The position numbers and the translations under genes were made by a program. A stretch of DNA of 33,174 nt from a virus. The DNA lies in the IMG/VR virus record IMGVR_UViG_3300044450_000017. One strand, 5' to 3'. The notes under the pieces are model-generated. The model did not search any database, was not told the DNA's origin, and worked only from the letters and a program-made list of their open reading frames with translations. Positions 1 to 33,174 of the stretch are shown piece by piece. Numbering within the stretch: position 1 is the stretch's first letter; the number at the start of each line of letters is the position of its first letter.

Positions 1-127
1 GTACTGGTGTAGGCGCTACCGGTACTGGAGTTGGAGCCGTTGGCACAGGAGTAGGCGCAACCGGTACAGGCGTTGGTGCAACAGGCACCGGTACAGGCGT
101 TGGTGCAACAGGCACCGGTACAGGCGT
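1..127. repeat. Terminal direct repeat identical to 33048..33174. This is an assembly overlap indicating a circular or circularly permuted genome with a unique length of 33047 bp.
   Basis: Base-by-base comparison of the two window ends gives an exact 127/127 match. The interrupted ORF stays in frame across the join. Confidence 0.95.
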
Positions 128-442
128 AGGTGCAACCGGTACTGGAACTGGAGTAGGTGCTACTGGTACTGGTACTGGTGTAGGCGCTACCGGAACCGGC
201 GTTGGCGCTACTGGTACAGGTGTAGGCGCGGTTGGCACAGGTGTAGGTGCTACAGGTACAGGTACAGGTACAGGAACTGGCACAGGATTTGGCGTTGGCG
301 TAGGTGCAGGTACCGGAGTTGGCGCCGTTGGTACTGGAGCAGGTACAGGTGTTGGCGTAGGTGTTGTAGGTACTGGGCTAGGTATAGGCGCCGGTACTGG
401 TGTTGGCGTTGGTGCTACCGGCACTGGTGTAGGTGCGACTGG
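1..442 (-). repeat. GC-rich degenerate tandem repeats encoding Pro/Thr/Val/Ala linker 1 of the tail-tip protein. The linker is about 149 aa when joined to 33043..33047.
   Basis: Minus-strand codons read ...[20 protein letters not shown]...[16 protein letters not shown].... The 27-nt unit cgttggtgcaacaggcaccggtacagg is exactly tandem at 71..97 and 98..124. The region is much more GC-rich than its surroundings. Confidence 0.9.
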
Positions 443-2800
443 GCAACCAACTCCTACTGAACCTGTGTAGGTTATAGAATTTAAGTCCGCGCCAGTAGTC
501 CAATCATTTAAATCGCCTACATTGTAAGCATAAAAACTTTGACCATTCCAGCTTATAGAACTAGCCGTGCTAGGGTTACCGCTTGTATTTGGTAATACGC
601 TTGTTGTTCTAATCCACATATCCAGGTTCTCATAAAAAGTATCTGGGCAACCTCTAACTATGTAATAATTGTATGTATCTACAACGGTTGGGTATGAAAT
701 TTGACTACTATTAAATAATGTATCAACGTCCGTTGATTGGTCGCCAATGTGAGAATTAAAACTATATATGTTTTGTTTTACATTATATTCTAATGTATCA
801 ATAACTAATAGTTTGCTTTCTGTAAAAGTATTAAAGTCAATATACAACCTATCGAAAAGTTGTATTGGAAATTGAGAATCTACTTTCTTTAAACTACCCT
901 CATAACGTTGCATTTTAAGCCTGTTATCGTTTATGCGTTGTTGAGCAGTTAAATCTTCAATAAATCTAGGAAATGTATCGCCGTTTCTTAAAAATTTAGT
1001 TATATAACCTTTAAACTGTGAATCAATAGGCGCCATATAGCCCTTTTGAAAACGGTTAAATGTGCTACCCTGGTAAATATCTTTATATTCTAATTTATTA
1101 GTTAGCTTTTTACTTGTTGTTTGTGAGTTGCTAGTTTGTAAATTTTCTGTATTAAAAGACAATGTTTCGATTTCAGAATCTGGCGCATCTAAATAAAATA
1201 ATGTTTCCCAATTCATTTGCACCCCACTAATAAACATAGCAACGTGCGTGCCTCCAGCTTGTATTATAGGCTTACTAAATTCAAATTTAATATCATACGG
1301 TAAATAATTTTCGCTTACACTGGGGCAGTTGTAAGTAATTTGTTTGTTATAAGTAAGCCATTCGCCGCGTCCGCTATAAATATAAAAGTTTACAAAAGAC
1401 GAATTTACCCAAAGGTTGTCTGTTTGATTATAATAAAACGTTTGGTAATTTCCTGTGTATGCTCCATTTAAGTATTCCCTAAATCTTACGGTAATTCTAA
1501 ACGGTATAGCATACTTTGCTATTGTGCCTTGAAAACCACCGTTTTGCATTTGCGTTTCAAAACTAAAATTAAATTTAGTCGTATCTTCTTCGCTGCTTTG
1601 CGCTTTAATTAAAAAAGTGTTAGAAAGTACAAACTCAAAACTTGTAACCGTACCTGTTATTTTTGCAGACTTATAGCCTTTTATTGCATTGGTTTCTAAA
1701 CTTACAAAATTACTATCGTATTCCCAATCTGTAAAATCGTCCTCAAAATTACCGTTAGGAATATAATTAAGTTGCTTATCTAAACTGACTGTATTTAAAA
1801 CTTCAATGACACCACCGCTAGTTTCTTTTAAAAGGTCATCGCCAATAGGCAAAGCATCGTTTGGTATGAATACAATTTGACCTAGTACATTGTTGCCCGC
1901 TAAAATACCTAAATAATTATAGCGTTTGTATAATATAGACGCAGGGTCTGTAATGTCGGCATTATTAATTATAACCCAACTAGCTTGCGCTTGAAATATA
2001 CGGCAGTTAAAACCTGTTAAAATTGAAGTTAAAACCTGCGACGTATTAAATTTATAAGTGTTTTGGTCGCTATAACTGCTACTATTTATAATAACGTCCT
2101 CAAATACATTAGTTATTGCAGCAGCGTTTTCTTCTTTTATGTTTGTTTTTACATAAATATCTGCTTCAAAACCTGTTTCATTTAAAGACTTGTGTAAACA
2201 TTCCCAAAGCGTAACCTCGTTATTAGGCGCAATAGGGAACTCAATTCCCTTTAGTAACCCTAAACCATCTACTGCCTTAAAAGATACGTTAAAAGGCGCC
2301 GCAGATAACCTCTGCTGGTATGTGTCCTGTATTAAAAAACCTTGCCAAAATATTTTATAATTTTCTATAATGTTACCGCCTTCCCAAACGCCACTATTAG
2401 CGTCCCAAACAATATTTGTATTTTGCCATTCGTCGGCAGGGTTGTAACCTTGGCCTAATAAATTCCAAGTTTGACTTGCAGCCTCCCAATTTTCGCTTTG
2501 GTCTTCCCAATATGGAACTCGTGTTTCTGAATAATACAACTTAACTAAAAACTCGCGTTCGTCAAAATCGTAAAATTCGTCGTAGGTAACAGAATCAGTT
2601 TGTATTAAATTAATCTCGCAGTTGGAAGCTATAATAGGGTCGTAAAAATCATTGTCTTGTTCCCATTTTATAGAAATAGGCGAACCAGTACCTATTAAAG
2701 GGTAAATAAAACCGTTATAGTTTTTTTGTAAAATATCCAAACGCCTTTTATTCCCTTCCGTATCGGAAAAATCCAAACGGTATTTCGTTCCGTATGCCAT
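1..2800 (-). CDS. Large tail-tip / receptor-binding protein, N-terminal 933 codons. The ORF runs off the window start and continues in frame at 33047..32344, giving 1167 aa in total.
   Basis: The ATG at 2798-2800 lies 3 nt after the tape-measure stop. I checked every codon of this frame from 2800 down to 1 and found no tta/cta/tca. After removing the 127-nt overlap the frame equals that of ORF 32344..33162. It is absent from the ORF track because it has no in-window stop. The N-terminus [30 protein letters not shown] is typical of tail proteins encoded just after a tape measure. Confidence 0.85.
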
Positions 2801-2803
2801 AAC

Positions 2804-5086
2804 TTATTTTATTCTTGACCTTGTTTTGTCTGCTCTTTGCAATGCAACTACTAAATCTTGCCCTCTTACTACAAATTCTCCGCTTACGTTTACATTACCG
2901 CTTGCGCCTTGGTCGCCTATTATGTTTTTAAGTTTATTAAGTGGCGCTATAACCTCTGGATTGCTTTTTGCACCAGGATATTCGCCTACTAAACCCATTG
3001 TAGGGCCGCTAACAATACCACCATTAGCAAAGGCTGCAAAACCACCGCTTTGTACTTTTGTTGCTAAACCAGTTAATACAGTACCTAATACTATTGCCGC
3101 AACTCCAGCGGCAGCGCCTATTCCTGGTATTGCAAATGTTTTTGCTAAAGCAGAAGCTGCAACCGCAGCCTCTCCCATTTGTTTTAACAACCCACCTAAA
3201 GCGCCTAATATTGCTCCGGATAAAGCACCCATTAAATTTTTACCGTCCACTATTGCGGTAGCTAATGCCTGGCCCATTGTTGTCGCTATTGAGCCAAAAT
3301 TAACTTCAAAAGCCATTTTTAAATTATCTGTGCTTTTTGCTATCTCGTTAAATGTTTCAGCTACTGGTTGCGCTATTGGTAATTGCGCTATGCCTAACAT
3401 TTCTGTTTTTAATTTAGCTACTTTAGGCGTTAAATCTTGTATTGCTTTTGTCGTTTCTTTTATAGCAGGTTTTTGATTTGGCGCTAATAAAGACAAGCCT
3501 TGTTGTTGAAAGTTTGATGCGCCGCCTGGTAATTGTGGGCCAGTAGGTGCTACTCCAGGCATTGCACTTGCACCACGTTTAGCATTTTTTAAAGACTGTG
3601 CGCTGGCTTCTGCTACGCCTAAAGATACTGCAACACCGGCAGCACCTCCGCTCATAAAACCACTTAATGCAGCTTTAGCTTGTTCAAATGTAGATAATGA
3701 AGGCGCAATTTTATCAGCAGCAGTAACAAATGCAGCCCCTAAACCTACTATTGCAGTGCCAAACAAAACAACTGGGTTAGCTAGCATTGTTATATTTAAA
3801 CTCTTTACGCCTGTAATAAGTTTACCAATAACGGCGCTACTGGCAACCGTAGAAATAGCGCCAGATAAAACTCCAAATGCCGTTATCATATTTCCAATAA
3901 CAACAAGCGCTGGCCCTAGTACAGTAATTATACCGCCTAAAATTATTATAGCTTTTTTAGCCTCTGGGCTTAAAGATTGAAAGCCTTTAAATAAATTCAT
4001 TAAGGCATTGGCAGCAGATTTTATATAAGGCAAAAATGTACTTAATAATTCGCCACCTAATTCAGTAAAAGCAACCCTTAATTCGTTTAAACTTTTTTGC
4101 AATTTAAAAGACGCGCTTTCAGACGTAGCTTCGAACGCTTTGGCAGTTGCGCCTTGCGTTTTTGTCATATTATCAAAAATCTGCCTAGTAGTTTCTACGT
4201 TAGCACCTAGTAAATCCATTACCCCAGATAAAGCCCTAACATTACCAAACACTCTTTGCGCAGCAGTATCGTTGCCTTCAAAATTCGATTTTAAGACTTC
4301 TAGTGTAGCCAGCAAACCATCTTCTTTTAAAGACCTTCTTAACTCGGCGCTAGATAAACCCATTTCAGATAATGCAGCTTCGGCGTCTGTTGTTGGCTTT
4401 AACAAACTAGCAAATATACCTCTAACTTGCGTTGCGGCTTCGGCAGCGTTTGTACCAGTTCTTGATAGCGCAGCAAATGCAGCACCAACCTCGCCAAAAG
4501 TAACTCCCATATTAGAAGCAATAGGTAAAACCCTTCCCATAGATGCAGCTAATTCGTCAGCCTCTAGCTTACCTTCACGAACCGCAGAAACCATTACGTC
4601 TGTTGCGTCAGTTGCACTTAATACTTGCGAGCCATAAGCGTTCATTGCAGACGTTGCTAAATCAGCTACTATTTTAGTTTCTCCTAAACCTACCGCAGAA
4701 GCCTTTAAAGAAGCGTTTAAAACGTCCATAGCTTCGCTGCCACGTAAACCAGCAGATGTTATAAAGAATAAAGCCTCTGCCGCGTCGTTAGCACTAACGC
4801 CTGTATCTGCTGCCATTTTTTTAGCAGCTTCCCCCATTTTATCAACTTCTGCGCTTGCAACACCTACTAATGATTTTATTTTAGTCATAGACTTGTCAAA
4901 GTCTACGCCCATTTTTATAGCAGCGCCCCCAGCTAAAGCAAGTGGCAATGATAATTTTGAAAGGCTTGTGCCTACGCCAGTTACTTTTTTACCAAAAGAT
5001 TTTAGTTTGCTGCTCGCGGTATTTAATGAAGCGCTTAACCTAGAAGCGTCCCCAGTTAGTAATACCTTTAATTCATTAGCTGCCAT
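2804..5086 (-). CDS. Tail tape measure protein (760 aa)
   Basis: It is the longest Ala/Gly-rich ORF and lies directly downstream of the G/GT chaperone pair. It has a TP901-type core motif (ADLATSAMNAYGS), central hydrophobic segments and a C-terminal GGIVSGPTMGLVGEYPG...EVIAPL motif. Confidence 0.9.
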   Translation of the reverse strand: MAANELKVLLTGDASRLSASLNTASSKLKSFGKKVTGVGTSLSKLSLPLALAGGAAIKMGVDFDKSMTKIKSLVGVASAEVDKMGEAAKKMAADTGVSANDAAEALFFITSAGLRGSEAMDVLNASLKASAVGLGETKIVADLATSAMNAYGSQVLSATDATDVMVSAVREGKLEADELAASMGRVLPIASNMGVTFGEVGAAFAALSRTGTNAAEAATQVRGIFASLLKPTTDAEAALSEMGLSSAELRRSLKEDGLLATLEVLKSNFEGNDTAAQRVFGNVRALSGVMDLLGANVETTRQIFDNMTKTQGATAKAFEATSESASFKLQKSLNELRVAFTELGGELLSTFLPYIKSAANALMNLFKGFQSLSPEAKKAIIILGGIITVLGPALVVIGNMITAFGVLSGAISTVASSAVIGKLITGVKSLNITMLANPVVLFGTAIVGLGAAFVTAADKIAPSLSTFEQAKAALSGFMSGGAAGVAVSLGVAEASAQSLKNAKRGASAMPGVAPTGPQLPGGASNFQQQGLSLLAPNQKPAIKETTKAIQDLTPKVAKLKTEMLGIAQLPIAQPVAETFNEIAKSTDNLKMAFEVNFGSIATTMGQALATAIVDGKNLMGALSGAILGALGGLLKQMGEAAVAASALAKTFAIPGIGAAAGVAAIVLGTVLTGLATKVQSGGFAAFANGGIVSGPTMGLVGEYPGAKSNPEVIAPLNKLKNIIGDQGASGNVNVSGEFVVRGQDLVVALQRADKTRSRIK

Positions 5087-5103
5087 ATAAATTTATTTAC
5101 CTA

Positions 5104-5111
5104 CAAAAATA
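5104..5111 (-). promoter_or_regulatory. Canonical Bacteroidota-type -7 box TATTTTTG (TAnnTTTG), 17 nt upstream of the tape-measure ATG
   Basis: The minus strand reads TTATTTTTGTAGGTAAATAAATTTATATG. The 12-mer ctacaaaaataa is shared with the site at 30221..30232. Confidence 0.35.
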
Positions 5112-5114
5112 ACC

Positions 5115-5141
5115 AAAAAAAGGCACTTAATTAAGTACCTT
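5115..5141 (-). terminator. Terminator/attenuator-like hairpin overlapping the GT stop codon, just before the tape-measure gene
   Basis: Minus-strand RNA is AAGGUAC-UUAAUUAA-GUGCCUU (7 bp including one G-U) running into a U7 tract. Confidence 0.4.
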
Positions 5142-5899: not shown

Positions 5900-6310
5900 C
5901 TATACGTTAGTAGACTTCACTATTGGGCCAGTAATGGTAATTGAACCACTATAAGATACTGGGCTTTCCATTTCAGCAGATTGCTCAATGCTAGAAATAA
6001 AACCTTCTGCGGTATAAATAGAATCGCCGCTTTCAGTTGTTCCAAAAATTGCAGTTATTTGCGTTCTGTTTATAATGTAATCTGCTAATTCGATTGCATT
6101 TGCAGTATCGCTATAATCTACTAAACCTTCAAAAGAAATTTCGCCACTTCTTACGCCAGAAATTACCTCTTGCCACCCTGCGCTATCTTTAGTAGTCGCT
6201 TCTGGTAGGTCGTGTGAAATTGTAAGAGTACACGACGTAGTGTGTCCTACTGTTACGTCCTCTACTTTAAGTAAAAGGTTAGTTCCGTTAAATACTCCTG
6301 TTGTTGCCAT
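5900..6310 (-). CDS. Major tail (tube) protein (136 aa)
   Basis: Size and position upstream of G/GT and the tape measure. The pattern is TP901-1/phi13-like (NGTNLLLKV...GHTTSCTLTISHDLPEATTKDSAGWQE...GEISFEGL). It is flanked by a promoter-like motif and a terminator. Confidence 0.8.
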   Translation of the reverse strand: MATTGVFNGTNLLLKVEDVTVGHTTSCTLTISHDLPEATTKDSAGWQEVISGVRSGEISFEGLVDYSDTANAIELADYIINRTQITAIFGTTESGDSIYTAEGFISSIEQSAEMESPVSYSGSITITGPIVKSTNV

Positions 6311-6448: not shown

Positions 6449-9154
6449 TTAGAACTGGTTAGCAAATGCCATATAGATATAGGTACTTGAAGTATTATTA
6501 AATCCTGTTGAAGTACTGTTAAAAGAAAAACCATTCGGCGTAAAATTTACAATAGCAGGGTCGTTTACAAATTCTTCACTTGATAAATTTGCATAAACTC
6601 TTTTGTCAGAACCTCTTTTATTATCAAGCATTTGCCAATCTCCTGTACCTCCTGTTACTCTTTTAATCATTACAAACGCAGGTTCAAAACCACAGTTTTG
6701 CTCATTAGGTATTGCTGCCCCACTGTAACTACCAAACTTACTAAATCCTGCAACCTCTGCGAAACAGTAGGCTATTGTTTCTGTATTTGCGTCAAAAGAA
6801 GTGTTAGACGTACCTCCAATTAAGCTACTTGTCATACCACTTCCCCACCACTTAAAGCTACCATTTTCAGCATTAGTATTAAATTGAAGCATATATCTAC
6901 CATTTCCACCGCTTGATAAATCTTTGTGATAAATAAACCAGTTAAAAATGTCTGTGCTTTTTGTAATTACCATAGCTGGCTCTGTGTTTAATCCGTGTCC
7001 AGCAGTAAAGTCTCCACTTGATGGAACTGTAAACTTAACAATACTAAACCCAGCAGCAGGATTTGCACTAACAACAGAAGGAATACTACCGTTACTGTTT
7101 ATAGCAGGTATTTCTGCTCCTTTCCAGTTCCAAGCAACTATGCCATTTCCATTACCGTTTGCTGAAGTTGTAGTACCTAAACTAAATCCATCTGCATCAA
7201 AAGATGTTATATGATTTGTTGTAGTATCTTCTGCATCTGTAAGACTTGAATAAAGTAGTTTAGTATTGCCTCTTACTGAATCAATTAAATTGTGGTGCTG
7301 AACGGCATCTCTATTTTTAATCCAAACAAAATCTGGTTGGAATCCAACCCCTGTAATTGAACGAGCAGTTGCATTCCCTGTATAAGTAACAGTATTAAAA
7401 CTATCTTCTAAAGTAGGTTCTACTGCGGTAGGGTCAGCAGCAAATGCCATATAGATGAAAGTGTCTCCGCTACTATTTAAACCTCCAGATGTGTTTGTTA
7501 ATTCAAATCCATTTTCTAAAAATGTTACTGGTCCATAAGCACGCTCTGCATCTGAAAGGTTAGGAGCTAAAACTAAATCAGCAACATTATTCGTAGCTCT
7601 TTTGTTGTCAAATATTGACCAATCAGAAACATTACTTGACCTTTTTATAATAACCATTGCAGGCTCAAATCCTGTTACAACAACATTTCCACTTGCTACT
7701 CCTGTACCAACATACGAACCAAAGTTAGAGAAACCTTCTACTGAATGGAAGGCATAACATATATATTCGTTATTTAAAACATTAAGAGTACTTGCTCCGC
7801 CTGTATAAAATATACTTGAATTAGGTAATGGTCTGCCTGAATCTGCTTTTGCATCAGTTTTGTTTAAATAAAGAAAATCTTGAGAGCCGTCAATAATGTC
7901 TGTATAAAAATACCAATCTAAAGGACTTGTTCTATTTTTTATAATAACAATTTCTGGAGGCAAGTTTAATCCGTGTCCAATTTCTCTTTGCGAATCTCCA
8001 CTTGTATAATCTCCCGTATAACTAACAATACTAAACCCTGCCTCTGTATTAGCAGATACTTGAGATGTTATTGTTCCATCTGTGTTTGTTACTGCTGCAC
8101 CTCCTGCTTTAAAGTTCCAAGCTACGTAGTTTTGACCGCTTTCATTTGTTCCGTTAGACACACCAAGAGAAAAACCATCAGAATCAAAAGAAGTTACATT
8201 TGTATTAGTGACTTCAGCAGATGTTTCATTACTTGAAATCATTTTATTTACCCCTCTAACAGAATCTCTTAATTGATTACCACTTATGCCTGTTCTTTCC
8301 TTTATCCAAACTAAGTCGGGTTGGAAATCAACTGAACCTACTTGGTTTAATAAAGGTGTAGATTGTGTGCCTCCATTTCCCTCATAAGTAATCGTACTAA
8401 AATGCTGACTTGGCACAATAGTAGGTGTACAATATTCTTCTGTATATAATGCTTCTACTTCGTATGGTCTTAATGCTCTGTTGAATATTCTTACTTGGTC
8501 TATTGAGCCATCTGAATAAGCAGGAGTATCAATTCTTGAAATACCTATTGTATGATTATCTATAACAGAAGGATAATCAATCCAAGATGTATTTGATGCA
8601 GTTCCAGTATTTTCATAAGTTCCTAATAATTTAGAGCCATTAACATATATTTCTTTATCTGTGTCTGTAACTTGCACTAAGATATGAACCCAATTAGTCG
8701 TTGGAGTTATATCTGCTTTATAAATTGACCTATTAGCTGTAGAACCGTCTGTAACATTTATTCTTATAAAACTTAAATCATTAAACCAACCTAATTGAAA
8801 ATAATGAAGTGCACTTGAATCATCACTTGCTCCATAAGGGAAAATCCTACTTGTTAAAGTGTTTGGTTTTATCCAAGTACTTATTGATTTTATAATATTA
8901 GATTTATTAAAAGGACTACCGCTTGGTAAAGTAATTCTACTACTCCCATCAAAAACCCCTGCTTGACCAAATACACCTGTACCATAAGTAACATTCGTAG
9001 CAGTACCATTATAGTTTCCACTAACATCAGTAGCATCTCCATTTAATTGATATAAAGCTAAACCACCACCATCGGGAAATGGGTTGTATAAATCTACTGT
9101 ATTAGTACAAGCACCGCCTCCTGCATCATTTGATTTGATTAATCTATTATTCAT
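6449..9154 (-). CDS. Large tail fibre / receptor-binding protein (901 aa) with an N-terminal ConA/LamG-like domain and a 2 x 3 array of ~100-aa repeats
   Basis: The N-terminal part has a Laminin_G_3-like pattern (GQAGVFDGSSRITLP...ISTWIKPN...DQVRIFNRAL). The rest contains six modules with the recurring pattern Y.G.G...GF(Q/E)P(D/A).V.IK.R....W...D..R...F...GF.L....Y(I/V)..AF. Confidence 0.7.
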   Translation of the reverse strand: MNNRLIKSNDAGGGACTNTVDLYNPFPDGGGLALYQLNGDATDVSGNYNGTATNVTYGTGVFGQAGVFDGSSRITLPSGSPFNKSNIIKSISTWIKPNTLTSRIFPYGASDDSSALHYFQLGWFNDLSFIRINVTDGSTANRSIYKADITPTTNWVHILVQVTDTDKEIYVNGSKLLGTYENTGTASNTSWIDYPSVIDNHTIGISRIDTPAYSDGSIDQVRIFNRALRPYEVEALYTEEYCTPTIVPSQHFSTITYEGNGGTQSTPLLNQVGSVDFQPDLVWIKERTGISGNQLRDSVRGVNKMISSNETSAEVTNTNVTSFDSDGFSLGVSNGTNESGQNYVAWNFKAGGAAVTNTDGTITSQVSANTEAGFSIVSYTGDYTSGDSQREIGHGLNLPPEIVIIKNRTSPLDWYFYTDIIDGSQDFLYLNKTDAKADSGRPLPNSSIFYTGGASTLNVLNNEYICYAFHSVEGFSNFGSYVGTGVASGNVVVTGFEPAMVIIKRSSNVSDWSIFDNKRATNNVADLVLAPNLSDAERAYGPVTFLENGFELTNTSGGLNSSGDTFIYMAFAADPTAVEPTLEDSFNTVTYTGNATARSITGVGFQPDFVWIKNRDAVQHHNLIDSVRGNTKLLYSSLTDAEDTTTNHITSFDADGFSLGTTTSANGNGNGIVAWNWKGAEIPAINSNGSIPSVVSANPAAGFSIVKFTVPSSGDFTAGHGLNTEPAMVITKSTDIFNWFIYHKDLSSGGNGRYMLQFNTNAENGSFKWWGSGMTSSLIGGTSNTSFDANTETIAYCFAEVAGFSKFGSYSGAAIPNEQNCGFEPAFVMIKRVTGGTGDWQMLDNKRGSDKRVYANLSSEEFVNDPAIVNFTPNGFSFNSTSTGFNNTSSTYIYMAFANQF

Positions 9155-10853: not shown

Positions 10854-10861
10854 CAAAGTTA
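10854..10861 (-). promoter_or_regulatory. Canonical -7 box TAACTTTG, 15 nt upstream of the ATG at 10838
   Basis: The minus strand reads TTAACTTTGTAAAAAAATAGATTTATG. Confidence 0.35.
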
Positions 10862-12068: not shown

Positions 12069-12140
12069 AATAAAAATAAATTATAAATGGCGCCTACAAC
12101 ACCAACAACCCAAATTATAAATAATATATAACAAAAATAT

Positions 12141-16022: not shown

Positions 16023-16115
16023 AGGTTGATTATTTAATTTAAAGCTAATTTAAAATAAATTTTTAATATATACCAAACAAAATGCAAAAATATTTTAAAT
16101 TTATTTTTTAGGCAT

Positions 16116-16166: not shown

Positions 16167-17360
16167 TTAAGCAGTCTCTAAAGCAGCTTTATCAGTTGCG
16201 AAGTCTCCAGTTACGAATCCTTTTGGTAGGTAGTTAGTTAAAGCAATTCTTTCACTTACTCTTACAGTAACGAAACCGTCTCTAACGTTAGTACCATCTT
16301 CTCTGAAGAACTCAACGCTTACGTTATCTCTAACCCATAGTTGCGTACCCATTCCAAAGTTACCTACTAAGTAATCTCCGGCAGGAATAGCCGTGTTGAT
16401 TACAACAGGAACACCTAAGAAAGTAGGCTGCAATCCAGCGTAAACAGAATCTTTAATGTAGTGGTTGTCAGAACCTTTTAACAATAAGATTTTGTGGAAA
16501 TCAGTTGGGTTAAGCATAATATAATCAGCGTTGTAGTTAGATAACGCTAATTGGTTTAATGCAGCAGTTAATACGTCAAACTCGTTAGCAGCTTCTACCG
16601 CTCCAGCAAACCCACCGGCAGCAAATGCAGTTGCATCTGTAATGATACCAGATAAGTTAGAACCTGTACCAGCACCGCTTAAAATTTGCGTGTCCTCAAC
16701 TTCTAATAATTTTTCTGGCGCTCTTGCAGAAAGGTAAGAAGTTAATTGTGGCGTGTCAGCTAACATTTCCTCTGAAATTCTAAAGTAAGTACCGATTTTT
16801 CTAACGTTAGCGTCAGCAGCAGTCATATCGAAATCAGACTGTGCCATTGTAGCGCCTTCTGCAACTGGTGCAGCACCATTAGAATATCCGCTTTCTTTTA
16901 CGAATCTTACTACGTCAGAAGTTGTAGAACCTTGTGGTATTAACTGTCTAGCGTGTACAGGTCTTGTTGGGTCAAATTTGTACCCAGGTACTCTGTCAGC
17001 AGCAATAACTTCGCCAGTAAAATCAGCGCCAGTTGTCATATCAGCTTTAACCTCAAAAGATGCAGAGCGTGAACCACCTTTTACAAGGCTTTCAATAGCA
17101 CCGTCTTTTAACGCAGTCAATAAGCCGTTTTTAAAAGATGCAGGTTTAGAAGCCTCAAATCTTTTTTTAGCAGCAGTTTCGCTAGCGTCTAATCTTTCGT
17201 TAAGTTCGTTGAACTTGTTTACAAGGTTGGTAACCTCGCCTTTAATCATTTCGTCTGCTTTTCCTGTTGCAGACTCTAACGCTTGGCCATAAGCCTTTTC
17301 AATGCGTGAATCAATTTCGTTAGAAATATTATCTAACTGTGATTTTAAATTTTCGTCCAT
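16167..17360 (-). CDS. Major capsid protein, HK97 fold (397 aa)
   Basis: It lies immediately after the prohead protease and has an N-terminal coiled-coil delta-like region. Its size and a terminator downstream also fit. Confidence 0.85.
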   Translation of the reverse strand: MDENLKSQLDNISNEIDSRIEKAYGQALESATGKADEMIKGEVTNLVNKFNELNERLDASETAAKKRFEASKPASFKNGLLTALKDGAIESLVKGGSRSASFEVKADMTTGADFTGEVIAADRVPGYKFDPTRPVHARQLIPQGSTTSDVVRFVKESGYSNGAAPVAEGATMAQSDFDMTAADANVRKIGTYFRISEEMLADTPQLTSYLSARAPEKLLEVEDTQILSGAGTGSNLSGIITDATAFAAGGFAGAVEAANEFDVLTAALNQLALSNYNADYIMLNPTDFHKILLLKGSDNHYIKDSVYAGLQPTFLGVPVVINTAIPAGDYLVGNFGMGTQLWVRDNVSVEFFREDGTNVRDGFVTVRVSERIALTNYLPKGFVTGDFATDKAALETA

Positions 17361-20633: not shown

Positions 20634-21995
20634 TTACACTACAAAAAAGTTATTAATTAAATTACGTTCTATTGAGTAGCTAGTAACGTCTATATGTTCG
20701 TCGTGTTTAGCGTTTGGGAAAGTGCTAACTTGTTGAATAAACGCTTCGTTCCAATTATCCTTAACTAAAAACACCCTGCCACCTTCAATAAATGGCGACG
20801 ATGCCCTGGCCCTTTCAATTTTTGAATACTTTACAAAGTTAGTTTTTAACTCGCTTACATTAAAATTTGTTTCGCGCCTTAATAACTGAACTAATGATTT
20901 CCCAGATGCTTTAGGCTCTACTAAAATTTGTTGTATATGTACACTGCAACTTTTCACAAAACTTTCAATAAAAGTTTTAAGTTCTGGCATTTCTAAGTAT
21001 TTATCTATGCTTTTAAGTATATACAAATTACCGTCTTTACCTTTACCGCTAATCTGTATTCCTGTTGGGTCGTTTCTTGTGTCTTTTGTATATGCGCCAT
21101 CTATAAACATTTCCCAATAAACATCCGCTGGAACCTCGGCTTTGTTTATTATACTAAACCAATCTTTGCGCCATTCCCCACCCTCTTGCGGTGCTGGCTC
21201 TTGCATATACTGACCGCTAAAAGTATAACGGTCTGCCTGCCTAATAGCTTCTAGTTCGTCAAAGCTATGTTTGCTGGGCCATAGTGCATTATTGTTTTCG
21301 TCTATTGCAGCTAACTTTAAATGGTGCCATTTTTCTCCACTACCACCGTCTAATAGATAGCCGCTTAAATCGTCTTCGTGCAACCTTTGCATAATAACTA
21401 TAATAGGCACGTCTCTGCTATTTACACGCGACCTAATGGTAGTATTGTATCGGTTATTAATAAACGAGCGCTTAACATCTGAAACGGCATCGTCCGGCTT
21501 TAAAGGGTCGTCAATAATAATAGCCCCACCAGTACCAGCACCAAATCCAGTTATAGCACCCCCAGAAGCGGTAGCATAAACACCGCCGCCAGCAGTTGTG
21601 TACCACTTCTTTTGGCTTTGGCTATCTTTTTTAAGTTGCAATGGCCAAATGCTTTGATAAGCGTCGCTAGTAATATAGTCCCTAGTTTGGCTAGAATTAT
21701 CTAATGCTAAGGCGTCTGAATAAGATAAGTGTATAAATTTTGAAGCTGGGTTTTTAGCAAGCGACCAGGCCATAAACATTTTAACGGCAATCTCGGTCTT
21801 ACCATACCTAGGCGGTATATTTATTATAAGGCGGTTTATTTCGCCTTTGCTTACCTTTTCAAGGGTTTCGGCCATTTGGATATGAAATGGCGCCACTTCA
21901 AACCTATTGCCTGTATTTTCTTTAAAAATAAATCTTGTAAAGAATAGTAAGCTATTAATACATTTATCTTTAATAATCTCCCTAACTGCTTCCAT
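20634..21995 (-). CDS. terL: Terminase large subunit (453 aa)
   Basis: Walker A-like PPRYGKTE, Walker B AIIIDDPLKPDD, the coupling motif IVIMQRLHEDDLSGYL, and a C-terminal nuclease-size domain. Confidence 0.9.
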   Translation of the reverse strand: MEAVREIIKDKCINSLLFFTRFIFKENTGNRFEVAPFHIQMAETLEKVSKGEINRLIINIPPRYGKTEIAVKMFMAWSLAKNPASKFIHLSYSDALALDNSSQTRDYITSDAYQSIWPLQLKKDSQSQKKWYTTAGGGVYATASGGAITGFGAGTGGAIIIDDPLKPDDAVSDVKRSFINNRYNTTIRSRVNSRDVPIIVIMQRLHEDDLSGYLLDGGSGEKWHHLKLAAIDENNNALWPSKHSFDELEAIRQADRYTFSGQYMQEPAPQEGGEWRKDWFSIINKAEVPADVYWEMFIDGAYTKDTRNDPTGIQISGKGKDGNLYILKSIDKYLEMPELKTFIESFVKSCSVHIQQILVEPKASGKSLVQLLRRETNFNVSELKTNFVKYSKIERARASSPFIEGGRVFLVKDNWNEAFIQQVSTFPNAKHDEHIDVTSYSIERNLINNFFVV

Positions 21996-29391: not shown

Positions 29392-29532
29392 TTACTGTTT
29401 TAATTTAATTTGATTATCGTTTAATTTTTGTAGCACCTCGCAAATTGCATCTGGTGTACCTTTTATTTCTATTTTAGCGCAACTATTGCTTTCGTATATA
29501 ACTTCTATATTATCAATCGTAGTGGTTTGCAT
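29392..29532 (-). CDS. Possible 46-aa ORF (MQTTTIDNIEVIYESNSCAKIEIKGTPDAICEVLQKLNDNQIKLKQ)
   Basis: TAATG stop-start overlap with the upstream gene, and it ends 5 nt before the SSB ATG. It is below the track's cutoff. Confidence 0.4.
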   Translation of the reverse strand: MQTTTIDNIEVIYESNSCAKIEIKGTPDAICEVLQKLNDNQIKLKQ

Positions 29533-30023
29533 TATATACTAAATTTATCTTTTATCTGCGCGCGGTATTCTTTTTTCATTTTAAAGGCGCCAACAACTTT
29601 ATATGCCTGCTCTTTAGTACCTTTTAATGTAGATTGTAATTGACTATCTGTAAGCCAAGGTCTATTATCTGCTTCTTTGTTTTGGTTTTGCACGGCATTA
29701 CCCACTTCCTCTGCGCTTGCAATAGAAGTGTCAATACCTATGCCCAAATATCCTAATGCGCGGCCTAGAGCGCTTGTAAAACCGTTCTCTAAAAAGCTGG
29801 TCTTGTTTATATAGCTACTATCTCGGTATTCCTGGGCGTGCGCCGTTACAACAACGTTTCCCTCGCCGTCTGTTATAGTTACCTTAAAAACGCCTTCCTT
29901 ATCGTCTAGCCTTTCAATAGTTTCTATAATACCCCAGTTAGTAAATACGTCCTCTGACCTAAAATGTTTTAACCGCTCATTTACGGTAATGTAATTGTTC
30001 CCTTTAATGTTTACTGCTTTCAT
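29532..30023 (-). CDS. Conserved phage replication/recombination-module protein (163 aa), possible single-strand annealing protein
   Basis: The pattern YITVNERLKHFR...TAHAQE...NKTSFLENGFTSALGRALGYLGIG recurs in phage proteins encoded beside exonuclease and SSB genes. The family is not firmly recognised. Confidence 0.3.
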   Translation of the reverse strand: MKAVNIKGNNYITVNERLKHFRSEDVFTNWGIIETIERLDDKEGVFKVTITDGEGNVVVTAHAQEYRDSSYINKTSFLENGFTSALGRALGYLGIGIDTSIASAEEVGNAVQNQNKEADNRPWLTDSQLQSTLKGTKEQAYKVVGAFKMKKEYRAQIKDKFSI

Positions 30024-30223: not shown

Positions 30224-30231
30224 CAAAAATA
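30224..30231 (-). promoter_or_regulatory. Canonical -7 box TATTTTTG, 16 nt upstream of the HTH gene ATG (candidate early promoter)
   Basis: The minus strand reads TTTTATTTTTGTAGAAATTATTTACAAATG, located directly after the strong terminator. Confidence 0.4.
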
Positions 30232-30265
30232 AAAATTATCTTTTAATTAAAAAAATATTTTACAT

Positions 30266-30300
30266 AAAAAAAGGGGCAGCAATCCGAAAATTACTACCCC
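30266..30300 (-). terminator. Strong rho-independent terminator ending the late operon
   Basis: Minus-strand RNA is GGGGUAGUAAUU-UUCG-GAUUGCUGCCCC (12 bp including three G-U, with a UUCG tetraloop) followed by U7. Confidence 0.7.
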
Positions 30301-30325
30301 TAGCAAAGAAACAAAAAAGGGAATC

Positions 30326-31156
30326 TTAAAAATTATATGTTTCTAACCATTCTTTTGCAGCTTTATAAAATTCATTATCTGGAAATTTGCTAACATCTAT
30401 TTGGCCCATATTTCTTTTGTCAAAAATAGGGTCGCAACTGTAATGCGCAATATGGTGCCAGCTTTCTAAATTGTTTACGTTTGGATAATAGCAGTTGTGC
30501 GTATCGACCATTTTAATTTTATTGTTGTGGCACGCAATATTTAAACCGTACATCGCTTGCCACCAACTATGATTGTTTCCGTTTTGTTCTGTTCCTATTT
30601 TAATACTCGTTTCAATTATTTCGTTTATAATCTTTTTAAGCGTTTTAACGCGCGCTATTACATTAAATCCGCCGTTCATATAATTATAATCGTCGTGTTT
30701 TAAATACTTCTTTATAATGCCGCTATTTGCGCTTGTCGGCTTTGTTATATGCAAATGCCAATCATTATAAATAGCGTCTGCAACCACTTCGTCAAATTTA
30801 GGAATATATCCATCGTACTTTTTTAAATGTACTAAATCAGCGTCTATAATTTCAACAACTTCATCGTCTGGCAAATCTTGTATTATTTCTCTAGCGGCGG
30901 TAAATACATTTGTAGGAATATAAATATCTCGCTGCAAATCGTACATATCCAAAATGCTATCTACCATTTTGTAAGGCAGTTTTAAATTCCAATCTACATC
31001 GTCTTGTATAGGCTCCTGCTTATTATTGCGTTTTACTATTGGTATAATCGCTTTGTTCTTAGCGTCGTTGCCATATACTTTCAAATGTTGGTATTGAAAA
31101 AAACTAATTTGTCGCCTAAAATATTCGTTGGCTACTGCGCAAGGTATTGAAATCAT
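30326..31156 (-). CDS. GT-A-like putative glycosyltransferase (276 aa)
   Basis: N-terminal MISIPCAVANEYF resembles the first strand-helix of GT-A folds, and VVEIIDADLVHL provides a DxD motif near residue 105. It has an ATGA overlap with the dioxygenase gene. The family is not identified. Confidence 0.3.
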   Translation of the reverse strand: MISIPCAVANEYFRRQISFFQYQHLKVYGNDAKNKAIIPIVKRNNKQEPIQDDVDWNLKLPYKMVDSILDMYDLQRDIYIPTNVFTAAREIIQDLPDDEVVEIIDADLVHLKKYDGYIPKFDEVVADAIYNDWHLHITKPTSANSGIIKKYLKHDDYNYMNGGFNVIARVKTLKKIINEIIETSIKIGTEQNGNNHSWWQAMYGLNIACHNNKIKMVDTHNCYYPNVNNLESWHHIAHYSCDPIFDKRNMGQIDVSKFPDNEFYKAAKEWLETYNF

Positions 31157-32331
31157 ATCAGCTTATAATGAACGTAAAAATTATTAAAACTTTCTCCTTG
31201 GAACGGTTCGGTTCTGCCGTGTTCGCATATAGCGCTTTCGTATAAAATCATTTCGCCTGGTTCTGCATATACTTTATGCCATTCTCCGTTATGGTCTTGT
31301 ATATCTAGCGGCCAATCTTCGCCAAATTCTTTATGCGAACAACCGCAACGCAAATCTTTATCTACTATTATAATGCTGCTAATATGGTGCGTTTCTACCC
31401 TATCGACGTGCTTTATTAAAGTGGCGCCTTTTTTATAAGACCTTATGCCATATATAAAAGTTGGCTCAATTTTTTGACCGCAAAACTTTTCGTGTATAGG
31501 CTGCAATTGCTTGTGTATTAATGACCTTATGCTAGTCAAATGCTCAAACGAATATATATCGCTGCCGCCGCCTATTATTACGTTTTCTTTACCCTCAAAA
31601 ACTTCTTCTGTTTTTTTGTTTTTTAAAATCTCGTATGCGTCTTTTATTATGGCCCAGGTTTCTGCTGGAACCTTTACGACCTTAAAACCTTTTTCTGTTA
31701 ATTTTGGTATTTGTTCTTTGCTAGTGTACACTTTTGGTTTATTTAATTTTTCAAATAAATTAGCGTCTTCGGCGCCATTCCAATCGTTTTCGCGCCACCA
31801 AGAAGTTATTATATATTTAATTCCTTTTGTTATTGTGGTACCTTCGTGCATTGTTTCTGGCTGCGGTTCGCCGTCAATTGTGTTTTCCCAAACTACCGCC
31901 TTACCTAATTCTGGCTTTATTATTTTTCCCAATTTAGGAAAACTAGTGCCGCCACCATCGAAATCGTCGTTTAAATAAATCATAAACGTAAATGTACGGT
32001 TGCCACTAGACAGGCAATGTTTGTCGTAAGCATCGCCACTAAAATAGTCGTTATGCTCTTTAAAGAATTGCCCTACTTCGTATTTTTGACCTTGTAAATC
32101 TTCTCCCTTTTTAATATCCAAACCTAAATTGTCGGCTATTTTTTGGTGTATAGATTTTACGGTTGGGTCATTAGGCGCCAAATTAGAAGTGCTGGAAGTT
32201 CGTGTTTCTGAAATACCGCTTCTGTCTGTTCCGCCAACTACAACGCTAGAACGTACGTTGTTGGCCTCAATCATTTCGACTAAAGCCTGGCACTCATTTT
32301 TGCTAAGAAATCCATTTATTTCTTTTACCAT
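31153..32331 (-). CDS. Fused double 2OG-Fe(II) dioxygenase (392 aa): an N-terminal prolyl-4-hydroxylase-like domain plus a second HxD...H dioxygenase domain
   Basis: Domain 1 has FLSKNECQALV, RTSSTSNL, EDLQGQKYEVGQFFKEHNDYF (HxD), NRTFTFMIYLNDDFDGGGTSFP, GKAVVWEN, MHEGTTITKGIK (His, with Lys at +10) and ITSWWRE. Domain 2 has YGIRSYKKGATLIKHVDRVETHH (HxD), EPGEMILYES and CEHGR. Confidence 0.8.
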   Translation of the reverse strand: MVKEINGFLSKNECQALVEMIEANNVRSSVVVGGTDRSGISETRTSSTSNLAPNDPTVKSIHQKIADNLGLDIKKGEDLQGQKYEVGQFFKEHNDYFSGDAYDKHCLSSGNRTFTFMIYLNDDFDGGGTSFPKLGKIIKPELGKAVVWENTIDGEPQPETMHEGTTITKGIKYIITSWWRENDWNGAEDANLFEKLNKPKVYTSKEQIPKLTEKGFKVVKVPAETWAIIKDAYEILKNKKTEEVFEGKENVIIGGGSDIYSFEHLTSIRSLIHKQLQPIHEKFCGQKIEPTFIYGIRSYKKGATLIKHVDRVETHHISSIIIVDKDLRCGCSHKEFGEDWPLDIQDHNGEWHKVYAEPGEMILYESAICEHGRTEPFQGESFNNFYVHYKLI

Positions 32332-32343
32332 AACATATTTATT

Positions 32344-33174
32344 TTAGCAAGCGTTTCTTTGCGCTACTACAATACCGCCGTTACTTATTTGAACTTGATA
32401 AGTTGCTGCAAAATCTGACGTTGTACCAACTCCATACCATTTAAAGTCTCCATCAAATGGATTAGTACCGTTAGAATCTACAAACCATCTGCCGTCTAAT
32501 TTAGTCGCTTGTGTTTCAAAATCGCCTTCATAATAAGCAGTAAATGCTAAAAACTCAAAACATTGGTTATCTGTTGTTGAACCGTTTGTTTCACTAGCCG
32601 TTATTCCCCCTTGCGTTACCAAAACTGGCGGTGTAGGTGTAGGTGTAGGCGTAGGTGCAACTGGAACCGGTGTTGGCGCAGTAGGAACTGGCGTAGGCGT
32701 AGGGGTTGGCGCAACTGGTACTGGCGTCGGAGCAACCGGAACAGGTGTCGGCGCTACTGGTACCGGTGTCGGAGCAACTGGTACTGGCGTAGGTACTGGA
32801 CCTTCACATTCACTACAACCGTTATTTAATGGGTAACCTGTTACGTCAATAGAATTTTCGTCCCCTGCATTTGCGTCGTATTGTGCTTTAGTTGCGCCAT
32901 TTTCAGCATAGTAACAAGAACCAAATATACTAATTGAAGTCGCCGCTTCTTTATTAGCACTAACTATATATGTAGACGTTGTTCTTACAACCCTATCAAT
33001 AGACGCTGCGCATCTGTTCATAAAGTAATAGTTGTAAGGGTCTACTGGTACTGGTGTAGGCGCTACCGGTACTGGAGTTGGAGCCGTTGGCACAGGAGTA
33101 GGCGCAACCGGTACAGGCGTTGGTGCAACAGGCACCGGTACAGGCGTTGGTGCAACAGGCACCGGTACAGGCGT
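32344..33174 (-). CDS. C-terminal part of the wrap-around 1167-aa tail-tip protein. The unique part is 32344..33047; 33048..33174 duplicates 1..127.
   Basis: Stop TAA at 32344-32346. The GTG start given by the track is an artefact of the window edge, because the frame is continuous with 1..2800 across the circular join. Confidence 0.85.
   Translation of the reverse strand, partial: TPVPVPVAPTPVPVPVAPTPVPVAPTPVPTAPTPVPVAPTPVPVDPYNYYFMNRCAASIDRVVRTTSTYIVSANKEAATSISIFGSCYYAENGATKAQYDANAGDENSIDVTGYPLNNGCSECEGPVPTPVPVAPTPVPVAPTPVPVAPTPVPVAPTPTPTPVPTAPTPVPVAPTPTPTPTPPVLVTQGGITASETNGSTTDNQCFEFLAFTAYYEGDFETQATKLDGRWFVDSNGTNPFDGDFKWYGVGTTSDFAATYQVQISNGGIVVAQRNAC
32626..32799 (-). repeat. Degenerate tandem repeats encoding Pro/Thr/Val/Ala linker 2 (58 aa)
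   Basis: Translation is [59 protein letters not shown]. The segment is GC-rich within an AT-rich genome. Confidence 0.9.
33048..33174. repeat. Terminal direct repeat, identical to 1..127
   Basis: Exact 127/127 match with the window start. Confidence 0.95.

Follow-up and report, generated by a model that had tools for sequence, protein, structure and literature searches.

The window analysed here, i.e. the whole 33,174-nucleotide stretch of DNA of the IMG/VR virus record IMGVR_UViG_3300044450_000017, carries on its minus strand three adjacent genes encoding, in this order, a 1167-residue tail protein with two proline-rich linkers, a 392-residue two-domain dioxygenase and a 276-residue glycosyltransferase. 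On the strength of the sequence comparisons described below, we consider it fairly probable that both linkers are hydroxylated and glycosylated by the two gene products. The initial annotation of this DNA had suggested hydroxylation and possibly glycosylation of the phage's own tail linkers, and homology, synteny, the joint absence of enzymes and linkers in some relatives, and gene fusions all favoured this suggestion. In the proposed mechanism, a late-expressed phage cassette would post-translationally modify a virion protein. During morphogenesis, the prolyl 4-hydroxylase (P4H) domain of the dioxygenase would use Fe(II), 2-oxoglutarate (2OG) and O2 to convert linker prolines to 4-hydroxyproline (Hyp), and the GT-A enzyme, which resembles hydroxyproline O-arabinosyltransferases (HPATs, CAZy family GT95), would then move sugar from a host nucleotide sugar onto the new hydroxyls. 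The product would be a Hyp-rich glycoprotein spacer resembling extensins or arabinogalactan proteins (AGPs), which would connect the tail tip to small C-terminal modules. The linkers as substrate, the glycosylation of Hyp rather than Thr, the identity of the sugar and the benefit to the phage are the parts of this scheme that we infer; the benefit could lie in a rigid polyproline-II (PPII) rod, in protease resistance or in glycan-mediated adhesion. Since the gene trio recurs in dozens of uncultured phages, their tail linkers probably become plant-like Hyp glycoproteins.

As described in the initial annotation, the last three genes of the unit form a tight group: the dioxygenase gene (31153..32331) starts 12 nt past the stop codon of the tail gene, the glycosyltransferase gene (30326..31156) overlaps it by ATGA, and the three genes share a terminator. 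The tail gene itself spans the two ends of the window. These ends consist of 127 identical bases (1..127 equal 33048..33174, an exact terminal direct repeat), and the window thus represents a contig that closes into a circle of 33,047 bp. Once the overlap was trimmed, a single open reading frame (ORF) of 1167 codons was found to run across the contig junction on the minus strand, from 2800..1 and then from 33047..32344. The part at 1..2800, with the start codon at 2800, holds the N-terminal 933 codons, its bases 1..127 being the assembly overlap, and the part at 32344..33174 holds the end of linker 1, a Cys module of ~80 residues, linker 2 and a C-terminal domain of ~92 residues, with the stop codon at 32344..32346. 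An independent contig of the Joint Genome Institute (JGI) carries a called, uninterrupted gene of 1167 residues ahead of the same 392- and 276-residue genes, which rules out that the ORF arose artificially when a repeat was circularised.

The two linkers built of P, T, V and A that had been noticed in the C-terminal third of this protein were both found. Linker 1 comprises ~150 residues (residues ~787-936; minus strand, 1..442 and on to 33040..33047) and was delimited by composition, and linker 2 comprises ~59 residues (residues ~1017-1075; minus strand, 32623..32799) and was delimited by composition and repeats. Both are (X-Pro)n sequences with 41-46% Pro, at every second position, the remainder being V, T and A. 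The region of linker 1 contains 68 P, 40 V, 24 T and 17 A among 165 residues, and the linkers together contain 39 Thr. At the DNA level, they consist of tandem repeats of 21, 27, 42 and 54 nt. As a perfect 27-nt (9-residue) tandem array spans the contig junction, linker 1 may be longer or shorter than given here by multiples of 9 residues; the tail protein of a near-identical relative has 1176 residues. Apart from the tail protein, the genome encodes no Pro-rich protein. The N-terminal ~312 residues of the tail protein share ~23% identity (E 5e-6) with gp59 of Cellulophaga phage phi18:1, a virion protein identified by tandem mass spectrometry (MS/MS) whose gene lies right after that of the tape measure, and Salinibacter phages also encode proteins similar to this N-terminus. 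Searches of the tail protein against Pfam and PHROGs gave no match. The homology to gp59 and the position after the tape-measure gene justify the term 'distal tail / tail-tip structural protein', so that of the receptor-binding tail-tip protein proposed in the initial annotation the structural part stood, and receptor binding remains a proposal. A linker-free homologue (L163:4436-8395) has repeated small Cys modules joined by short 'GCPVPP' or 'GCPVIP' junctions, which sit where the window protein has its long (X-Pro)n linkers.

In the dioxygenase, the P4H domain (residues 1-195; minus strand, 31747..32331) was assigned by its match to PF13640, by homology to solved P4Hs and by fold. Residues 5-183 match the P4H of Bacillus anthracis with an E-value of 4e-23, and the same region matches human C-P4H alpha-2 (2e-19), Chlamydomonas P4H-1 (4e-14) and the P4H of PBCV-1 (3e-13). 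The Pfam family PF13640 was matched with an E-value of 9.5e-16 and 59 bits, compared to a cut-off of 27. Every motif that had been quoted in support of a P4H pattern in the N-terminal half was located, i.e. FLSKNEC, RTSSTSNL, EDLQGQKYEVGQFFKEHND, NRTFTFMIYLNDDFDGGGTSFP, GKAVVWEN, H162/K172 and WWR, and H93-x-D95, H162 and K172 (the Lys ten residues after the His) were invariant in an alignment of 40 homologues. The comparison with solved structures that the initial annotation had suggested for the two enzymes was carried out with models. An AlphaFold (AF2) model of the 392-residue protein, with a predicted local distance difference test (pLDDT) score of 92.4, was matched by Foldseek to the P4Hs 5hv0, 3gze, 2jig and 5c5t with target-normalised TM-scores of 0.71-0.78; among these, 3gze is the structure of an algal P4H together with a (Ser-Pro)5 peptide. 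EF-Tu hydroxylases of the PHD/PPHD type matched more weakly than enzymes of the collagen/algal type. By sequence, catalytic residues and modelled fold, the N-terminal domain is thus a collagen/algal-type peptidyl-prolyl 4-hydroxylase, with the activity predicted. When 50,697 phage records were searched by tblastn, the dioxygenase obtained half-length matches only, e.g. for its C-terminal half in Synechococcus phage S-SCSM1 and for its N-terminal half in Erwinia phage Y3, and the two-domain form was found in none.

The 276-residue protein matched the Pfam family PF23452 (HPAT) over residues 138-248 with 25.2 bits, compared to a gathering score of 23.9, and its gene carried the precomputed mark 'HPAT (weak)'. 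Many members of its family match the HPAT profile more strongly, with E-values down to 1e-15 and over nearly the whole profile. The family is small: clustering at 90% identity gave 82 clusters, and 86 representatives were retrieved from 1.84 billion proteins; in a search of these proteins, the family profile also finds bona fide HPATs, e.g. P0278 (Pfam HPAT E 4e-164) at an E-value of 3e-7. Alignment of the family to four HPAT-family proteins with hhalign gave 97.5% probability and an E-value of 4.9e-12 over 166 columns, which take in the DxD, W..MYG..IAC and HY motifs, and the identity across the aligned core is 17%. D105-A-D107 forms the DxD motif, in which D105 and D107 are invariant, and the motifs WWxAMYGLNIAC and IAHYSCD are conserved as well. 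The GT-A hallmarks reported for this gene were borne out: the MISIP first strand and IIDADLV are both present, and the structure model (pLDDT 95.9) has a GT-A fold, with GT6 GT-A enzymes as the nearest solved structures (E 1e-6, TM about 0.5). We found no HPAT structure in the PDB, a fold search of BFVD with the model returned generic GT-A matches only, and the tblastn search of the phage records did not find any homologue. The protein also lacks an N-terminal hydrophobic anchor, and its beta-strand 1 begins at residue 2. Plant HPATs are type II membrane-anchored Golgi enzymes (PMC8012813). As the phage-encoded protein has no membrane anchor, we named it HPAT-like rather than a member of the plant enzyme group. 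The sequence and profile comparisons place it in the HPAT (GT95) superfamily, in a very distant branch, and thus go beyond the GT-A assignment of the initial annotation.

In order to examine the gene neighbourhood in other viruses, IMG/VR was searched with each of the two enzymes as seed. The glycosyltransferase as seed gave 80 loci, about 60 of which contain a P4H-type domain, usually directly upstream or overlapping, and in about 35 an ORF with alternating X-Pro lies immediately upstream in the same orientation. With the P4H as seed, 75 further loci of at least 54% identity were obtained. The ORF adjacent upstream of the P4H was Pro-rich in 66 of 70 P4H-seeded loci. In three of the four exceptions the ORF was cut by the contig end, and in the fourth (L091) the script had chosen an overlapping ORF instead of the Pro-rich one. 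As a background, 129 of the 639 ORFs of at least 150 residues on the P4H-coding strand of these loci were Pro-rich, the targets included. P4H genes and genes of Pro-rich linker proteins thus co-occur across viral loci, as the initial annotation had proposed to check. A glycosyltransferase gene was present within 3.5 kb downstream of the P4H in 72 of the 73 loci with enough sequence. Its types were PF11397 'GlcNAc' (42 loci), which we take to be the Pfam family of Gnt1, the Skp1 hydroxyproline GlcNAc-transferase, HPAT-like (21 loci) and O-FucT-like (18 loci, assigned by a Pfam match below threshold). Genes for sugar-nucleotide dehydratases, carbamoyltransferases and radical S-adenosylmethionine (SAM) enzymes were also found in the cassettes, and collagen-like G-X-Y repeats, an alternative substrate, were absent from the loci. 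The E-values of the homology searches, together with the more than 70 further contigs that carry the gene trio, ruled out a chance arrangement. In 52 loci, a second Pro-rich protein of ~600 residues is encoded ~1.5 kb downstream of the P4H; one such protein (L130:11104-13512) contains the C-terminal domain of the Crassvirus muzzle protein (PF25729), a hint that these may be tail proteins of Bacteroidota phages.

Relatives of the tail protein were gathered with its N-terminal 708 residues as seed. In the linker-bearing relatives L157, L158, L164 and L083, the P4H follows directly after the tail gene, and the glycosyltransferase is present where the contig extends far enough. The linker-free relatives L161, L162 and L163, with 1284-1319 residues and N-termini that are 71-73% identical, have neither enzyme. 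In L163, the only linker-free relative read in detail, the tail gene is followed directly by a homologue of the early gene at 29532-30023 of the window. Gene fusions connect the two activities as well. A viral ORF in L073 consists of an HPAT-like domain fused to a PF13640 oxygenase, and in gammaproteobacterial metagenome-assembled genomes (MAGs; L175, L181-L184; P0217), some with the fusion on contigs of 0.6-1.3 Mb, an HPAT-like domain is fused to Cupin_8/JmjC hydroxylases. In Planctomycetes (Planctomycetaceae MAGs L178 and L180), the HPAT-like domain is fused to a PF11397 glycosyltransferase and an FkbM methyltransferase. On their domain composition, the bacterial fusions suggest cellular hydroxylation-glycosylation systems. 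In Pyrinomonadaceae MAGs, a (PPAPGRK)n protein is encoded ~2.3 kb upstream of the HPAT-like gene (L174:6954-7736, L176:6936-7634 and L177:7068-7571), with an unannotated ORF of 708 residues between the two genes; the repeat resembles the (PAPK)n sequences on which the Chlorella virus P4H acts.

The remainder of the dioxygenase (residues ~203-392; minus strand, 31153..31746) comprises a linker and a second beta-rich domain that resembles a double-stranded beta-helix (DSBH) in the AlphaFold model. In the homologue alignment, H308-x-D310, H371 and R373 of this domain, including the metal-binding triad, were invariant. It had no match in Pfam, and profile searches of PDB sequences returned nothing credible. 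Against NCBIfam, only a match with an E-value of 0.033 to a PiuC-type dioxygenase was obtained, and hhalign detected no similarity to the N-terminal domain or to Cupin_8. The label 'ferrochelatase' of the PHROG families that match the domain looks like a mis-annotation and was regarded as unreliable. In a sister clade (L004-L013), the second domain is a stand-alone gene of ~190 residues with the same motifs (e.g. L004:9396-10001), which lies between the genes for the Pro-rich tail protein and the glycosyltransferase. Since it occurs alone and keeps the triad, the second domain can be regarded as an autonomous and probably catalytic module, and, judging from this gene order, it probably performs a further hydroxylation or one that is relevant for the glycosyltransferase. 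In L008 and L009, the cassette contains one more small gene, with a motif like that of SAM methyltransferases (GLGLGVIPQW...DLIVFDIWFD), between the Pro-rich ORF and the gene for the second domain (~L008:8950-9370), and methyltransferases fused to the HPAT-like glycosyltransferase were seen in P0213 and L063.

Several of the observations weigh against linker modification by these two enzymes. The match of the 276-residue protein to PF23452 is marginal and partial (residues 138-248). The Pro-rich carrier proteins share their non-Pro domains, forming one cluster, and the loci come from related phages, so that much of the synteny is perhaps inherited instead of having been selected independently, and the counts are inflated. 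In the sister clade L004-L013, no P4H domain was found within 8-10 kb, and the P4H domain may thus not be the partner of the glycosyltransferase. The joint absence of enzymes and linkers could have arisen if the 3' part of the tail module was exchanged as a block. The initial annotation had itself named dioxygenase-bearing relatives that lack any Pro-rich structural protein as evidence to the contrary. In 66 of 70 P4H-seeded loci the upstream neighbour is Pro-rich; in L023-L029 (49-122 kb), in which the two-domain P4H is accompanied by HPAT-like and PF11397-type genes (L023:8809-11658, L027:3915-6858), the cassette lies inside a DNA-metabolism module (ribonucleotide reductase, DnaB-like helicase, QueC), and no Pro-rich ORF was found within 10-19 kb, a range that includes ~9 kb gained by following the contig further. 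Finally, GT95 is related to GT96, the peptidyl-Ser galactosyltransferase family (PMC8012813), and as a result of this kinship the Thr residues of the linkers could be the acceptors instead of Hyp.

This last point leads to an alternative in which the linkers are modified with the sugar on Thr or Ser, comparable to plant SGT1, a GT96 enzyme whose target is Ser adjacent to Hyp, or to GT60 of Trypanosoma cruzi, which acts on Thr; in a variant, the linkers are only hydroxylated and the glycosyltransferase extends another glycan. Apart from the kinship with GT96, GT60 includes a Thr-directed polypeptide GlcNAc-transferase (PMC6939170), the linkers offer 39 Thr, and O-FucT-like enzymes, classically directed to Ser/Thr, take the same position in 18 loci. 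On the other hand, the repeated fusion or adjacency of the glycosyltransferases to hydroxylases of different families is hard to explain without a hydroxylated residue, and some linkers (L030, L057) are near-pure PV or PA repeats with few Ser/Thr, which is why we regard this alternative as rather unlikely. We also considered that the dioxygenase, and perhaps the glycosyltransferase, acts on host proteins or metabolism, e.g. on EF-Tu, ribosomal proteins or oxygen sensing, and that the adjacency to the tail gene is incidental. The closest solved homologue, the B. anthracis P4H, was crystallised in a study which, by its title, presents the enzyme as modifying EF-Tu (5v7y), the layout with two DSBH domains is like that of the ribosomal prolyl hydroxylases OGFOD1 and Tpa1, the viromics literature lists P4HA as an auxiliary metabolic gene (AMG) of cryptic function (PMC9301287; PMC11706807), and in phages of the L023 type the cassette lies among replication genes. 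A host target is nevertheless improbable in our view: the neighbour is almost always a Pro-rich protein, enzymes and linkers are lost together, co-transcription with the tail genes late in infection is predicted, the partner enzymes are polypeptide glycosyltransferases, and the PHD/PPHD type of EF-Tu hydroxylase matches less well than the collagen/algal type.

A mobile 'moron' that travels with the 3' modules of tail-fibre genes and, for example, alters glycans or proteins of the host envelope against superinfection would account for the location of the cassette, as accessory genes are classically inserted where tail modules end. It would also account for the mosaic content of the loci, in which glycosyltransferases of three families are found, as well as a carbamoyltransferase, a sugar dehydratase and a radical SAM enzyme. 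We give this explanation very little credence, since signal peptides and membrane anchors are absent from both enzymes, the model of the glycosyltransferase starting with beta-strand 1 at residue 2, since the P4H family works on peptidyl proline, and since the association is specific to Pro-rich proteins and does not extend to tail genes generally. We retain the modification of the proline-rich tail linkers by the two co-encoded enzymes as the most probable explanation of this locus.

With regard to the genomic context, the minus strand codes for every gene of the 33,047-bp contig. PHROG matches revealed a siphovirus layout with terminase, portal, head, tail and tape-measure genes, among them the large terminase (20637-21995), the portal, the major head protein (16170-17360), the major tail protein (5903-6310) and the tape measure (5086..2804), the last of which directly precedes the 1167-residue tail gene. 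A 901-residue protein (6449..9154) matched PHROGs annotated as 'virion structural protein' or 'tail fiber protein' (E 5e-191); the location of its gene upstream of the major tail protein gene is unusual and can be compared to that of the collagen-like tail fibre gp52 of Cellulophaga phage phi18:1. The UUCG-loop hairpin plus U7 that had been proposed to close the operon was seen as an intrinsic terminator at 30265..30301, with a stem of 13 pairs (30301..30272) and a TTCG loop followed by T7. On the minus strand, the nearest upstream terminator-like site together with a TAnnTTTG box lies just before the tape-measure gene, and no strong terminator was found from the region upstream of this gene to 30301. 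The unit thus probably starts in the stretch 2804..5141, which comprises a terminator-like hairpin (5141..5120), the box (5111..5104) and the tape-measure gene. From this arrangement, the genes for tape measure, tail protein, dioxygenase and glycosyltransferase are probably transcribed together as a single late unit.

A Bacteroidota host, as implied in the initial annotation, was only weakly indicated, by the relatives of the tail protein and by the enrichment of TAnnTTTG, the -7 box of Bacteroidota. The box is ~2.3-fold enriched in intergenic DNA, with 9 of 36 copies in the intergenic 10.9% of the genome. Minus-strand copies at 30224..30231, 16085..16092, 12132..12139, 10854..10861 and 5104..5111 precede gene starts by 15-25 nt, and several of these copies come immediately after a terminator hairpin. 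The full two-box Bacteroidota promoter pattern showed no enrichment in the genome, searches with terminase and capsid matched unrelated phage groups, and no tRNA genes were found in the genome. The record stems from a small marine phage for which tail-protein relatives and promoter boxes weakly hint at a Bacteroidota host.

P4HA has been reported among the commonest AMGs of pelagic viruses in sea water, and according to the same authors its viral use 'remains cryptic' (PMC9301287). The locus described here gives a concrete hypothesis for this abundant gene, namely that the P4H modifies an adjacent Pro-rich tail protein which is then decorated by a polypeptide glycosyltransferase. In line with the initial annotation, to which no experimentally described equivalent in a tailed phage of Bacteroidota was known, our literature searches turned up no phage or bacterial HPAT-like enzyme, no Hyp glycosylation in a virus of prokaryotes and no substrate for a viral P4H. 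Taking the results together, we tentatively entertain, as quite possible although somewhat short of probable, a broader interpretation in which Hyp O-glycosylation, so far regarded as restricted to plants, algae and a few protists, is a widespread step of virion maturation in uncultured marine tailed phages, with counterparts in Gammaproteobacteria, Planctomycetes and Acidobacteriota. According to this interpretation, the viral 'P4HA auxiliary metabolic gene' would not be metabolic but one half of a P4H-plus-glycosyltransferase cassette that makes extensin-like glycoprotein rods out of (X-Pro)n tail linkers, and the second domain would be a new peptidyl hydroxylase. If linker modification is true, Hyp-glycosylation chemistry of the GT95/HPAT type would reach from eukaryotes to phages and bacteria, and chemistry of the Gnt1 type would likewise extend if PF11397 is indeed, as we presume, the Gnt1 family. 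It would also represent a new post-translational modification of virions with a bearing on tail mechanics, stability and host recognition, change the annotation of a major class of virome genes, and provide compact soluble P4H and Hyp-glycosyltransferase tools for the production of hydroxyproline glycopeptides in bacteria.

Among known systems, the pathway for hydroxyproline-rich glycoproteins (HRGPs) of plants and green algae shares with the phage cassette the same two superfamilies in the same order, a collagen/algal-type P4H followed by an HPAT-like GT-A enzyme, as well as extended Pro-rich repeats as substrates; the (Ser-Pro)5 peptide of the algal P4H structure 3gze is an alternating X-Pro sequence like the linkers. 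In contrast to the plant and algal enzymes, those of the phage are soluble and cytosolic, without a type II anchor or Golgi, the P4H has a second dioxygenase domain, and the candidate substrate is a virion tail protein. The glycosyltransferase, with 17% identity over the core, belongs to a very distant branch compared to plant HPATs. HPATs transfer L-arabinofuranose from UDP-beta-L-Araf to peptidyl Hyp, and UDP-L-arabinofuranose is, to our knowledge, not an expected bacterial metabolite. The Skp1 pathway, in which PhyA acts before Gnt1, has the same logic of a cytoplasmic, soluble hydroxylase followed by a glycosyltransferase, and PF11397-type enzymes, which we presume to be linked to Gnt1, accompany the same phage P4H more often than any other glycosyltransferase type (42 loci). 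In the pathway of Dictyostelium and Toxoplasma, Gnt1 (GT60) places alpha-GlcNAc on Hyp and strictly requires prior hydroxylation (PMC6939170). The differences are that Skp1 has a single modified proline, that PhyA is a PHD-type rather than a collagen-type P4H, and that the window carries an HPAT-like instead of a PF11397-type gene.

The P4H of Paramecium bursaria Chlorella virus-1 (PBCV-1; vCPH) is likewise encoded by a virus, and its match to the phage P4H (5c5t, target-normalised TM-score 0.77, E 3e-13) places both in one family. It is described, in the work of Eriksson et al. 1999 as cited in PMC9301287, as acting on short Pro-rich repeats, e.g. (PAPK)n, that are found in viral ORFs. Unlike the phage protein, it is a single-domain enzyme of a eukaryotic giant virus, without an adjacent dedicated glycosyltransferase or substrate gene. 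Mimivirus L230 and animal LH3 couple a 2OG-dependent lysyl hydroxylase to a glycosyltransferase, and L230 modifies repetitive structural proteins of the virus itself. Hydroxylase-glycosyltransferase fusions exist in the family of the window enzyme too (L073 and the bacterial JmjC fusions), but the residue modified by L230 and LH3 is lysine in collagen G-X-Y and not proline in (X-Pro)n, and their hydroxylase and glycosyltransferase families are unrelated to those of the phage. The cassette works in a comparable way but does not belong to this group, as the window has separate genes and a P4H-type hydroxylase, and the loci have no G-X-Y repeats. Mycobacteriophages are tailed phages that glycosylate their own virion proteins with phage-encoded enzymes, but this involves no hydroxylase, the glycosyltransferase families are different, the hosts are Actinobacteria, and the acceptors are Ser/Thr-rich C-termini of capsid and tail-tube proteins. 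OGFOD1 and Tpa1 resemble the dioxygenase in having two tandem DSBH domains (Foldseek E ~1e-12 over ~480 columns, with a very high root-mean-square deviation of 23 Å). Their second domain lacks the metal ligands, whereas that of the phage protein keeps invariant H308, D310 and H371 and also occurs alone, which sets it apart from these enzymes. The logic of hydroxylation followed by glycosylation is thus familiar, whereas the domain of life of the host, the substrate, the architecture of the enzymes and the cytosolic HPAT-like branch are new.

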